NCBI GenBank assembly: GCA_017654855.1
Contig: CM030332.1
Location: 1,302,001 to 1,366,000 of the forward strand
Length of the DNA stretch: 64,000 nucleotides
Direction of reading: 5' to 3'
Source of the DNA: Podospora anserina
Taxonomy: Eukaryota
The position numbers and the translations under genes are program-made. This document shows positions 1 through 3,727 of this stretch, piece after piece. Numbering within the stretch: the first letter of the stretch is position 1; each line of letters starts with the position of its first letter. The notes under the pieces are model-generated. The model had not been told where the DNA came from. It saw nothing but the letters and a program-made list of their open reading frames with translations, and searched no databases.

Positions 1-375
1 CCCTATACCTACCCAAAGCCTGACCCTGATAACCGCACAAAAAAGAAATAGATATCCTGCCCCAACCACCCAGCAAATAAAACGCCAAAGACATAACACA
101 ACCCTGAACCCCCAAGCTCCTTAAATAATGCTGATAAATGGGTCACTGATTTGCTCAAGACGCCTATCTCCTGGCAACTTTCCGTTGACGCGTAGAGCGA
201 CGCTTGGTATCCTACACCGCTGACTGCTGCTCCCCTTGCTTCTCATCCGCATTACTGAGCTCCAACGCCTTCAGACTTGCATCGCACATTGCGACATCTC
301 CGTCGACATCTTTGGGCAGACGGTTCTCTCGAGGTGGCTGTTGCTCCGGCTGTTGTTCCGGCTACTGCCCCAACT

Positions 376-415
376 GCTGCTGCTGACCCTCTTGCTGCTG
401 CTGCTGCTGCTGCTG
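376..415. repeat. CTG/CAG trinucleotide repeat downstream of the GCN5 stop
   Basis: (CAG)7CAA plus (CAG)4 on the minus strand, in frame with GCN5 as Gln codons. Confidence 0.9.
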
Positions 416-535
416 TGAAGATGCCGATGCCGACGCTGCCCGAGCCGCAACAGTACTGTTCCTCGAACTAACCCTTGTCGGTGGGCGACCCCTCCCACGC
501 TTTGGCTTTTGCTGCTTCTGTGGCTTCGCGCCCAA

Positions 536-1804
<1,269 letters not shown>

Positions 1805-2238
1805 GTTGCGCGCGGCGATTCCGGGATGAAAGCGAGTGAGGGCTGTATATGGGCGACGGCTCAAGCTGTCAAGCTTCTGGCGCCATTCATTTCGATGGCA
1901 AGCGCCGGGGATTGATGGAAGTTGTCGCGTTACCGATTGACGATGGCTCCGATGATGATGCGGAGAGAAGTGGATCTCGGTTCTCGAAGCTGCCACTTGC
2001 TGCGGCGCCTGGCCCCGGCTGCGACTGCAGGGCTGCCCCACCGACAGGGGGCCGCTGCCTGTGGAGAATGGCACTAGTCCGTTTCGGGGTTCGAACACGT
2101 TCCCGTTCTTGAGCTTCAGCTTCACGTCCAGTGAAGCTGTCCCAGAGCTGCTGGCACCGACAGCCTATCCGTACAGGCAATCACCAACTCTGCATCCTTC
2201 ATCTGTCTACTACCACATCTCCAGCACCATTACAGCAC

Positions 2239-2598
2239 ATGGATTCTTCACTGCACGAGGTCTGGCAGGCTGCGTCCGGCTCGCCGTTCACCCCCGCCAT
2301 CGGCAAGGACAACCAGTTTCTCTTGGCCTTCATTCTCCTGGTCCTGGGCTTTGGCCTCAGTGGCGCGTTCGCTCTGAGTATGCTTGCACGCGCACCTCCT
2401 CCGCGCAAACCATCTTGCTAACCCTGACATTGCGACAGACCGGTCTGTAGTGAGCCTCCCAACTTTGGCTGTGCCTGCGTCGTTGTCGCTTGCGTACGTT
2501 TTCCACCCACCTGGTCCAGATCCATAGGGATATTCGTTCTAACATCCAAAAGGGTTGGTGTGGTTTACATGTTCTGTGCGGTCGGGGTCTACGTTTAA
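2239..2598 (+). CDS. OST5: Oligosaccharyltransferase subunit Ost5/TMEM258-like small membrane protein; exons 2239-2377, 2439-2493, 2553-2598
   Basis: Two GT-AG introns with CTAAC branch sites give MDSSLHEVWQAASGSPF...AFALNRSVVSLPTLAVPASLSLAVGVVYMFCAVGVYV*; two hydrophobic helices and the characteristic ..GVYV C-terminus. Confidence 0.88.
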
Positions 2599-2695: not shown

Positions 2696-3727
2696 ATGGA
2701 CGCACCAGACCCCCCTATCTTCCGAGCCGTCACCAGCTCAACCAGACTTCTCTATCAGCTACTCAAAGCGATCAATTTCACCAATAAAGTCCACGTCGAG
2801 ATCACCGAGAAAGGAATCCGCTTCTCGACCGACCACGCCAGAGTGATGCAAGGCGTCACCCATTGGGACAAATCTCTCTTTACCTCGTATACCACAAATA
2901 TTCCCGCCCCCGAAGAATCCAACGGCAACCCCGACGACGAAGATGATGCCCCTCCCCCCTCGGTCATATTTCAACTATCTCTACCCGCCCTCTTGGAAAC
3001 CCTTCAGATCTTTGGCGCCGCCGACGCAGCCGCCCGCCAGGCCAGATCAGACATTGACCCCTACCGCAGCACCAACCTCCGCAACTACCGCTCCGACGCC
3101 TTCTCCAACCAGACCCTCGGCATGAGCAACGGCACTTGTTCGCTATCCTACAATGCCGAAGGTGACCCCTTCAGCATCATCCTCGAAGAAGGTAGCGTGA
3201 AGACGACCTGCAACCTCACAACCTATGTTCCTGAAATCCCAGAGGACATCCCCTTTGACATTGAAGATTTGGGATTCAAGATCATCACCCAGGCCAAGTG
3301 GCTGCTGGATGCACTGGCTGAACTTACGCCCGCTTCGCCAGAAAAATTGATAATTACCGCTAGCAAAGCAGCGCCTTATCTCAAGCTTACAAGTGTAGGG
3401 GGTGCTTTGGGGAGTGGTGGGATCGATTTTGCGCAGGGAAAGGACTTGCTCGAGACTTTTTCCGTGAGGAAGAAGAAGTGGAGCCAGGCTTTCAAGTTTG
3501 ATATGCTCAAGGCGGCGAACGAGGCGATGAGGATTGCGACAAAGGTTAGTTTGAGAGGGGATGGGCAGGGGGTGTTGAGCATGCAGTTTTTGGTCGAGGT
3601 GGGGGGGGAGGGGGGAGGTGTGTGTTTTTTGGACTTTAGGTTTGTGCCTTATGCTGATAGGGAGGAGGAGGACGACGACGAGACGGAGTGTGATGAGGGG
3701 GAACATGGGATGGAGGTTGATGGGTAG
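2696..3727 (+). CDS. rad1: 9-1-1 checkpoint clamp subunit, Rad1/Rec1/Rad17 family
   Basis: 343-aa intronless ORF; N-terminal F.A..SSTR.LYQLLKAI.F, central FQLSLPALLETLQIFG, C-terminal KVSLRGDGQGVLSMQFLVE..FLDFRFVP typical of Rad1/Rec1. Confidence 0.9.
   Translation: MDAPDPPIFRAVTSSTRLLYQLLKAINFTNKVHVEITEKGIRFSTDHARVMQGVTHWDKSLFTSYTTNIPAPEESNGNPDDEDDAPPPSVIFQLSLPALLETLQIFGAADAAARQARSDIDPYRSTNLRNYRSDAFSNQTLGMSNGTCSLSYNAEGDPFSIILEEGSVKTTCNLTTYVPEIPEDIPFDIEDLGFKIITQAKWLLDALAELTPASPEKLIITASKAAPYLKLTSVGGALGSGGIDFAQGKDLLETFSVRKKKWSQAFKFDMLKAANEAMRIATKVSLRGDGQGVLSMQFLVEVGGEGGGVCFLDFRFVPYADREEEDDDETECDEGEHGMEVDG

Follow-up and report, generated by a model that had tools for sequence, protein, structure and literature searches.

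A candidate AT-hook tail behind the UAG stop codon of GCN5 in Podospora anserina and its relatives

Where does the histone acetyltransferase Gcn5 end in Podospora anserina? The question is raised by a 64-kb window, the whole stretch of DNA analysed here (64,000 nucleotides of contig CM030332.1, positions 1,302,001 to 1,366,000), in which GCN5 lies on the minus strand and its reading frame runs on, past the TAG that closes it, into a peptide resembling an AT-hook. A first-pass annotation, made from the sequence alone, had proposed that a ladder of in-frame UAG codons in this flank allows stepwise lengthening of the protein by adenosine-to-inosine (A-to-I) mRNA editing or by readthrough. Comparison with diverged relatives supports the view that the first segment behind the stop, together with its hook, evolves in the GCN5 frame as coding sequence does and is under protein-level selection. 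That Gcn5 carries a cryptic AT-hook tail of 57 codons, made by bypass of the UAG and most likely through A-to-I editing during the sexual stage, is a proposition we regard as about evenly balanced.

The gene itself is a Gcn5/KAT2 histone acetyltransferase, with a GNAT domain followed by a C-terminal bromodomain and orthology to fungal Gcn5. Pfam recovers both domains in the protein (Bromodomain, 1.1e-25; Acetyltransf_1, 2.5e-10), and the closest named proteins, among the 120 best matches listed, are Chaetomiaceae Gcn5 at 96% identity. The parts of the gene are as follows.

1670 to 1804, minus strand: GCN5 exon 1, ATG at 1804-1802, 45 codons; exon-intron joint taken from RNA contig X16
1586 to 1669, minus strand: GCN5 intron, 84 nt, GT..AG (its ends read CT..AC on the plus strand), skipped by X16
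539 to 1585, minus strand: GCN5 exon 2, 349 codons, GNAT acetyltransferase and C-terminal bromodomain; last residues ...IPEWSHLES
536 to 538, minus strand: canonical stop TAG, the candidate editing or bypass site, with its A at 537; unedited in X16

RNA contigs were examined from four runs (X1, X15, X16 and X17), and GCN5 is covered by X16 only; the X1 and X15 contigs belong to a neighbouring gene, and X17 gave no contigs. X16 is colinear with the window from 1961 to 447 and continues into a CAG repeat, with the intron missing and the genomic TAG retained. As it lacks the GCN5 intron it is RNA-derived, and as it is colinear across the stop and the hook, the TAG is not spliced out and the message holds both unspliced. 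A transcript reaching beyond ~480, looked for by the first-pass annotation, is therefore in hand. In X16 two GCN5 positions depart from the window, 1001 (C>T, plus strand) and 1241 (C>A, plus strand); since A-to-G on the mRNA strand would account for neither, both look like strain differences rather than editing.

Past the TAG at 538-536 (minus strand) the GCN5 frame reads LGAKPQKQQKPKRGRGRPPTRVSS...QQQQLGQ up to a second TAG (364-362), then PEQQPEQQPP...QQSAV up to a third (214-212), and finally DTKRRSTRQRKVARR, TAG 166-164, AS and TGA 157-155.

365 to 535, minus strand: tail segment 1, 57 codons in frame, lacking an in-frame ATG ahead of the hook
473 to 502, minus strand: AT-hook block KRGRGRPPTR, KPKRGRGRPPTR; GRP core with Arg/Lys flanks, homologous to the K/R-R-R-G-R-P-P-G-R of relatives
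374 to 415, minus strand: (CAG)14 repeat, polyQ in the tail frame; lineage-specific, missing from the tails of L001-L006
362 to 364, minus strand: second in-frame TAG, standing where the 12-nt PEQQ repeat unit beside it has CAG; folding prediction places it outside a hairpin loop
155 to 361, minus strand: later ladder segments, 49 codons, TAG 214-212, 15 codons, TAG 166-164, 2 codons, TGA 157-155

AT-hooks are defined by a G-R-P core with flanking Arg/Lys, and KPKRGRGRPPTR at 502-473 fits this motif. Its presence is beyond chance. The strict hook pattern occurs once in the six frames of the window, at the tail site, and the looser [RK]GRP was counted 53 times in the 820,258 six-frame codons of 80 comparison loci, or 0.0097 times per 150 codons, with only 10 occurrences of [RK][RK]GRP in all 80 loci. 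The open frame and the run of TAG codons are, by themselves, within chance: over 155-535 frame 0, that of GCN5, holds four stops and the other frames one and three, half of these eight triplets being TAG, and directly after the stop frame 0 stays open for 57 codons, the other frames for 87 and 21.

The first-pass annotation was accurate in its description of this flank, since the GCN5 stop, the tail frame, and the coordinates and peptides of the stop ladder were all reproduced on the sequence, and the CAG repeats do fall in the Gln frame. Its suspicion that the second TAG is a mutated CAG also agrees with the repeat phase, the 12-nt PEQQ repeat covering 336-363. Its wider reading of the flank fares less well. 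The TAG run is within chance and nothing past the second TAG is conserved, or indeed past the hook block, and the ladder as a signal and the DGDV.M and RRSTR motifs of the later segments are therefore unsupported, though not excluded; the two motifs have neither conservation nor support beyond chance. GC content is ~0.55-0.6 (coding-like) down to ~180 and ~0.4 thereafter. The stretch 155 to 361 is probably ordinary 3' untranslated region (UTR) or decayed repeat, and what lies past the second TAG is probably outside the product.

Relatives were drawn from a scan of metagenome contigs that returned 471 GCN5 relatives, of which the best 80 were used. The 3' flanks compared number 52, namely the window and 51 loci with an uninterrupted C-terminal motif, with L053 added after inspection. 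Among the 29 loci lacking PEWSH, 26 have an intron after PEWS and fall outside the tail analysis, and the intronless L053, L077 and L079 were read. An intron directly after PEWS (before VS...) is seen in L043-L052, L054, L055, L060, L061, L064-L066, L068-L076 and L080; in Sordariomycete-like GCN5 without it, the last bromodomain helix and the stop are contiguous. A quick tree places the window, L001-L006 and L023 with Gcn5 of Chaetomiaceae and Podosporaceae (Shimodaira-Hasegawa-like approximate likelihood ratio test support, 87). L026 is nearest to Xylariales proteins.

Within 150 codons of the stop, [RK]GRP is found in 10 of the 52 flanks, nine times in frame 0, once (L002) in frame 2 and in no other frame, and the stop ahead of it is TAG in all 10. 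The conserved UAG and in-frame hook predicted by the first-pass annotation are thus recovered. In eight flanks the hook is reached without a further stop, at 14 codons in the window and at 38, 36, 37, 44, 42, 82 and 25 codons in L001, L003-L006, L023 and L026, respectively. One further frame-0 match, KRGRP in L078, was set aside: it follows four more stops, runs into a long membrane-protein-like open reading frame (ORF) and probably belongs to another gene. The R-G-R-P peptide is invariant while its codons vary: Gly and Pro are each written with every one of their four codons, and Arg with codons of both the CGN and the AGR type. At synonymous sites the window and L001-L006 have diverged to saturation, the proportion of synonymous differences (pS) being 0.63-0.72, so that a neutral stretch of 12 nt would have been lost. 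The stop-to-hook spacers are otherwise unalignable among relatives, as expected for what may be a disordered linker bearing one short motif.

The tails of the orthologues L001 and L003-L006 are 53-61 codons long and end 5-20 codons past the hook, at TGA in L001, L003, L005 and L006 and at TAG in L004; lengthening through a second to fourth TAG, as had been proposed for the window, has no counterpart in these sequences, where TGA ends four of the five tails. In L006 a convergent downstream gene, a long trehalase-like ORF identified by eye, ends ~460 nt past the stop, clear of the tail.

The closest pair, L005 and L006, allows selection to be read directly. Here the GCN5 coding sequence (CDS) has pS 0.182 and a proportion of nonsynonymous differences (pN) of 0.005, giving pN/pS 0.03. 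In the tail, frame 0 gives pS 0.218, pN 0.071 and pN/pS 0.32, against 6.39 in frame 1 (pS 0.023, pN 0.146) and 1.11 in frame 2 (pS 0.103, pN 0.114). The 18 tail substitutions fall 2/4/12 at codon positions 1/2/3 (chi-square p 0.009), and the single indel is 6 nt long. Identity is 88.7% across the tail and 72.4% over the next 300 nt, which carry gaps of 2, 3, 3, 17, 19 and 6 nt. In 5/5 informative pairs pN/pS is lowest in frame 0. The ratio below 1 that had been anticipated for the tail is therefore found, alongside an in-frame indel and synonymous turnover. As the tail appears conserved in frame under protein-level selection, the stop is probably bypassed at some stage of the life cycle.

Other tails may exist in the wider sample. 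The Lasiosphaeria-nearest group (L007, L010-L013 and L019) has 55-121 open, basic frame-0 codons after the TAG (the other frames 3-47), and a canonical hook was not found in these six sequences. Within it, L010 (3425-3720, plus strand) and L011 (2266-2630, plus strand) have 98 and 121 open frame-0 codons, no GRP hook, and the shared blocks VRRSS(R/G)L and SSVASCIV, and may represent a second, differently built tail family. L053 (1176-1990, plus strand) has 268 open in-frame codons after the TAG, the other frames closing at 130 and 9; its low-complexity tail has polyT, acidic and basic runs and a poly-Arg end, its GCN5 is ~85% identical to the nearest named proteins, and it is a candidate for a much longer stop-loss tail. 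In most of the remaining sequences, a group with several members nearest to Leotiomycete proteins, the frame closes within ~5-40 codons.

Downstream of the tail ORF, Chaetomiaceae-like 3' UTRs share a conserved non-coding element, roughly GATTGCATT..TTATTGGCGTTGGG followed by a second GGCGTTGGA, at ~15-40 nt past the tail stop in L001, L003, L005 and L006 and at ~60-110 nt in L002 and L004. A weaker look-alike, TTTGGCGTTTTATTTGC, is present in the window, possibly at ~60-100 (minus strand). The element could be a site for 3'-end processing or for an RNA-binding protein.

Annotated proteins are almost uniformly without the tail. Among the 120 best listed, 119 Gcn5 proteins finish 8-12 residues past IPEW, and the canonical stop is therefore ancestral; when the read-through protein was used as the query, all 120 aligned over just 70-74% of it, and none had the tail. 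A word-index protein search with the tail returned nothing at E<=0.01 among 59 candidates. A phmmer scan of 1.84 billion representatives gave one match, P0121 (1.3e-08; 1213 residues, repetitive and T/S/G-rich), which was taken as compositional and rejected as a homologue. The exception among annotated orthologues is the NCBI model P0105 from Zalerion maritima, in which a predicted intron skips the normal Gcn5 end and leads into ...RRRGRPALAPG...GQQQQAHQQPQQQQPAQPQQ..., an AT-hook followed by a Q-rich stretch; judging from this model, a tail that joins a hook to a Q-rich stretch can reach a good length in other lineages than that of the window. In BLASTP comparisons among the tails the hook block alone aligns, and segments 2-3 of the window are without similarity to Zalerion, L053 or the other tails.

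How might such a tail be made? Having no start codon of its own, it would be produced only if the UAG at 538-536 were decoded as sense. With no in-frame ATG ahead of the hook and an unspliced message, the one simple way to arrive at it is to bypass the UAG. The likeliest form of bypass would be the A-to-I mRNA editing that Sordariomycetes carry out during the sexual stage (by TAD2/TAD3), which would turn UAG into UGG (Trp) and yield a stage-specific isoform, ...HLES-W-LGAKPQKQQKPKRGRGRPP...., with the hook (KRGRGRPP) 14 residues past the last bromodomain helix.

Several features of the stop fit this route. The TAG provides the U at -1 and the G at +1 of the edited A that an editing site requires, and TAG is the stop in 15/15 tail-bearing sequences and in 19/28 others (Fisher p 0.017, uncorrected for phylogeny). 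Fungal editing favours U at -1 (PMC4817773, PMC11156358) and hairpin loops (PMC4817773), and a hairpin is predicted around the GCN5 stop.

520 to 557, minus strand: predicted hairpin with the UAG in its 5-nt loop; inner stem 546-539/533-526, outer stem 557-553/524-520; minimum free energy -11.3 kcal/mol, z -1.15, weak when taken singly

The stop A falls in a predicted hairpin loop in 14/15 tail-bearing sequences and in 9/17 others, and hairpin z-scores, computed against shuffled 3' arms, range from -1.15 to -2.44 in 8/8 Chaetomiaceae-like sequences. The pairing arms differ by lineage, CUGGAG with CUCC in some and CUCGAG with ...UCG or CGA in others. Reports of mRNA editing exist from Chaetomium globosum, Sordaria and Neurospora, and stop-loss editing of DBF2 was detected in eight Sordariomycetes including C. 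globosum (PMC13123824); the edited genes of Fusarium graminearum have 1,559 UAG stops, 323 of which undergo editing (10.1101/059725). From these features of the sequence, A-to-I editing is most plausibly the best-fitting bypass route.

A number of observations nevertheless weigh against an edited coding tail. Some concern the stop and its surroundings. No A-to-G change is present at the stop in X16, a single unstaged contig of a kind that loses minority variants. TAG is common in tail-less lineages too, and its conservation may be inherited. With shuffled 3' arms, too, 35-81% of trials place the stop A in a hairpin loop; the loop contrast is not significant with 43-nt windows (13/15 vs 15/23), and RNAalifold finds no hairpin shared by eight sequences (consensus energy -1.53 kcal/mol). 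Editing prefers A or G at +3 of the edited A (PMC11156358), a preference rather than a requirement, whereas this base is U in the window (UAG-UU) and C in L001, L002, L004, L005 and L006, being a purine in L003, L007, L010-L012, L019, L023, L026 and L053. Others concern the tail. The GC content of its third codon positions (GC3, 0.59-0.89) is lower than that of the CDS (0.73-0.97) in all but one of seven Chaetomiaceae-like sequences, the two being equal in L004, so its codon bias differs from what a normal exon would show. In flanks so rich in GC the length of the open frame is no guide, frame 1 exceeding frame 0 in four of seven Chaetomiaceae-like sequences. The hook of L002 is thrown into frame 2 by a 1-nt deletion just ahead of it. 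The AT-hook named by the first-pass annotation stands on its G-R-P core and Arg/Lys flanks and is not seconded by Pfam, whose AT_hook profile is silent at E<=10 on the window tail and seven others, although this profile is very short and HMMER filters discard weak matches; seven of the eight tails match no family, and L023 gives low-complexity noise only.

The conservation evidence would be accounted for equally well by programmed translational readthrough, in which a near-cognate tRNA, maybe aided by a hairpin, would decode the UAG at all stages and no editing would occur. A stable local hairpin is indeed predicted around or after the stop in the Chaetomiaceae-like sequences, and fungal readthrough extensions are known. 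TGA is, however, the leakiest stop and the usual readthrough codon, and it is never the stop of a tail-bearing sequence, all 15 having TAG. Known stimulatory contexts are UGA-CUA and UAG-CARYYA, whereas the stop is followed by T in the window and, in relatives, by G or A but in no case by C, so that neither context is found. Readthrough leaves both the exclusive use of UAG and the missing context unexplained, in a lineage with frequent UAG editing, and we consider it unlikely.

Less probable again, and in our estimate improbable, is that the stop is a plain one and the tail is never made, the flank being either a relic in decay or an element of the DNA or RNA that reads as a hook by accident. 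The weak codon bias and the frameshift in L002 would suit a relic, as would the 119 tail-less proteins among the 120 best listed and the want of any database protein matching the tail. Yet a 12-nt motif could not outlast saturated divergence (pS 0.63-0.75) with synonymous changes only, and the pN/pS pattern is confined to frame 0. The block RRGRPPGRGGRRV of L002 is identical to that of L001 and L004, which suggests that its frameshift arose recently or reflects an error of assembly. Nor is there a longer ancestral protein from which the tail could be left over, since the Gcn5 of outgroups ends at this stop too.

It is very improbable that the hook is translated apart from a Gcn5 extension, from a spliced alternative last exon or an independently initiated downstream small ORF, for although the Zalerion model reaches its hook-plus-polyQ tail via a predicted intron past the normal end, and in-frame Met codons occur within the tails of L001, L003, L004, L005 and L023, the hook keeps the GCN5 frame in 8/9 cases despite varied spacers, which neither splicing nor a separate start would need, the spacer is constrained in frame 0 right after the TAG, the window, L006 and L026 lack an in-frame ATG ahead of the hook, and X16 is unspliced over the stop.

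A UAG-bypass tail made by editing would have close parallels. In DBF2 the whole lineage has TAG as the stop, folding predictions put its A in a hairpin loop, and the extension, longer than in other fungi, is disordered, poorly conserved and destabilising (PMC13123824). GCN5 has the same TAG bias and an in-frame C-terminal extension of similar kind, and its stop A may likewise lie in a loop; editing has been measured for DBF2, whereas GCN5 is known here from sequence, and from genus to genus selection keeps an AT-hook in its tail, a sign of a binding function and not of a degron only. White collar-1 (WC-1) of Sordaria macrospora, like Gcn5 a chromatin or transcription regulator of Sordariales, gains by UAG-to-UGG editing a C-terminal extension for which an added function is proposed (PMC6794485); it is proven at the peptide level, GCN5 being a candidate from its sequence. 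GCN5 is not named as an edited gene in the main text of that paper, as far as the available portion goes (PMC6794485), and the literature search found no paper tying GCN5/NGF-1 to stop-loss editing or to an AT-hook tail, supplementary editing-site tables lying outside it. PUK1, in which tandem premature UAGs inside the conserved kinase domain each need UAG-to-UGG editing (PMC4817773), offers a model for several UAGs in one frame; GCN5 differs in being unconserved past its second TAG.

For the hook itself, the nearest likeness is to BRG1/BRM and SWI/SNF Snf2, chromatin enzymes with an AT-hook adjacent to a bromodomain, both of which are reported to contribute to DNA and nucleosome association (PMC5519978, PMC10403523). 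Their hook is constitutive and normally encoded, whereas that of GCN5 lies C-terminal to the bromodomain, behind a stop, in an acetyltransferase, and its binding is predicted; by this analogy the tail would bind DNA or nucleosomes.

Cryptic peroxisomal targeting in fungi arises by stop-codon readthrough at UGA with a defined downstream context, adding a type 1 peroxisomal targeting signal (PTS1). The GCN5 tail is similar in being a short C-terminal motif conserved in frame behind a stop, and differs in that the stop is always UAG, the context is missing and the motif is a candidate DNA-binding hook. Overall it appears to resemble the stop-loss editing extensions of DBF2 and WC-1, departing from them, among the defining features that could be tested, only in the +3 preference.

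A bolder reading, which we hold to be speculative and on the whole unlikely, is that editing in the fruiting body gives the Gcn5 of SAGA/ADA an AT-hook and retargets acetylation to AT-rich chromatin. One edited adenosine would suffice to tether the enzyme, for example to regions mutated by repeat-induced point mutation (RIP) in meiotic and ascospore nuclei. Such a module would be of ancient origin, kept in Chaetomiaceae-like and Xylariales-like (L026) lineages and echoed by the hook-plus-polyQ model of Zalerion, and the further UAGs in the repeat-expanded tail could yield graded isoforms in the species of the window.

Two neighbours of GCN5 complete the locus. Divergently upstream, at 2696-3724 (plus strand), is a Rad1/Rec1/Rad17 checkpoint-clamp protein (Pfam PF02144, 7.1e-68); the NCBI record of a Pestalotiopsis Gcn5 orthologue, P0031, is named 'checkpoint clamp complex protein Rad1', probably by a mix-up of neighbouring genes. 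Between the two genes lies a small, strongly represented transcript (2155-2440, minus strand), in which RNA-type contigs from X1, X15 and X16 span 2165-2377 and resume near 2440, implying an intron of ~60 nt from 2378; the 42-residue piece of it that was tested had no Pfam match.

Hundreds of stop-loss editing events have been catalogued in Sordariomycetes, and DBF2, in 2026, is the first functional case; according to a 2024 review, no function had by then been reported for any of them (PMC11156358), and the general adaptiveness of such editing is under dispute (PMC13684035, PMC13684032). Against this background, an in-frame DNA-binding motif with synonymous turnover between saturated genera is evidence of selection independent of editing-level statistics, and a conserved motif placed beside a bromodomain, behind a stop, is an unusual feature. 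In-frame comparison of 3' flanks can single out candidates for functional recoding from genomes without RNA data. If the reading is true, a stop-loss tail would be kept for a specific molecular function and not for dosage control, and a form of Gcn5 that is specific to one stage and brings its own DNA anchor would provide a testable link between RNA editing and chromatin regulation.

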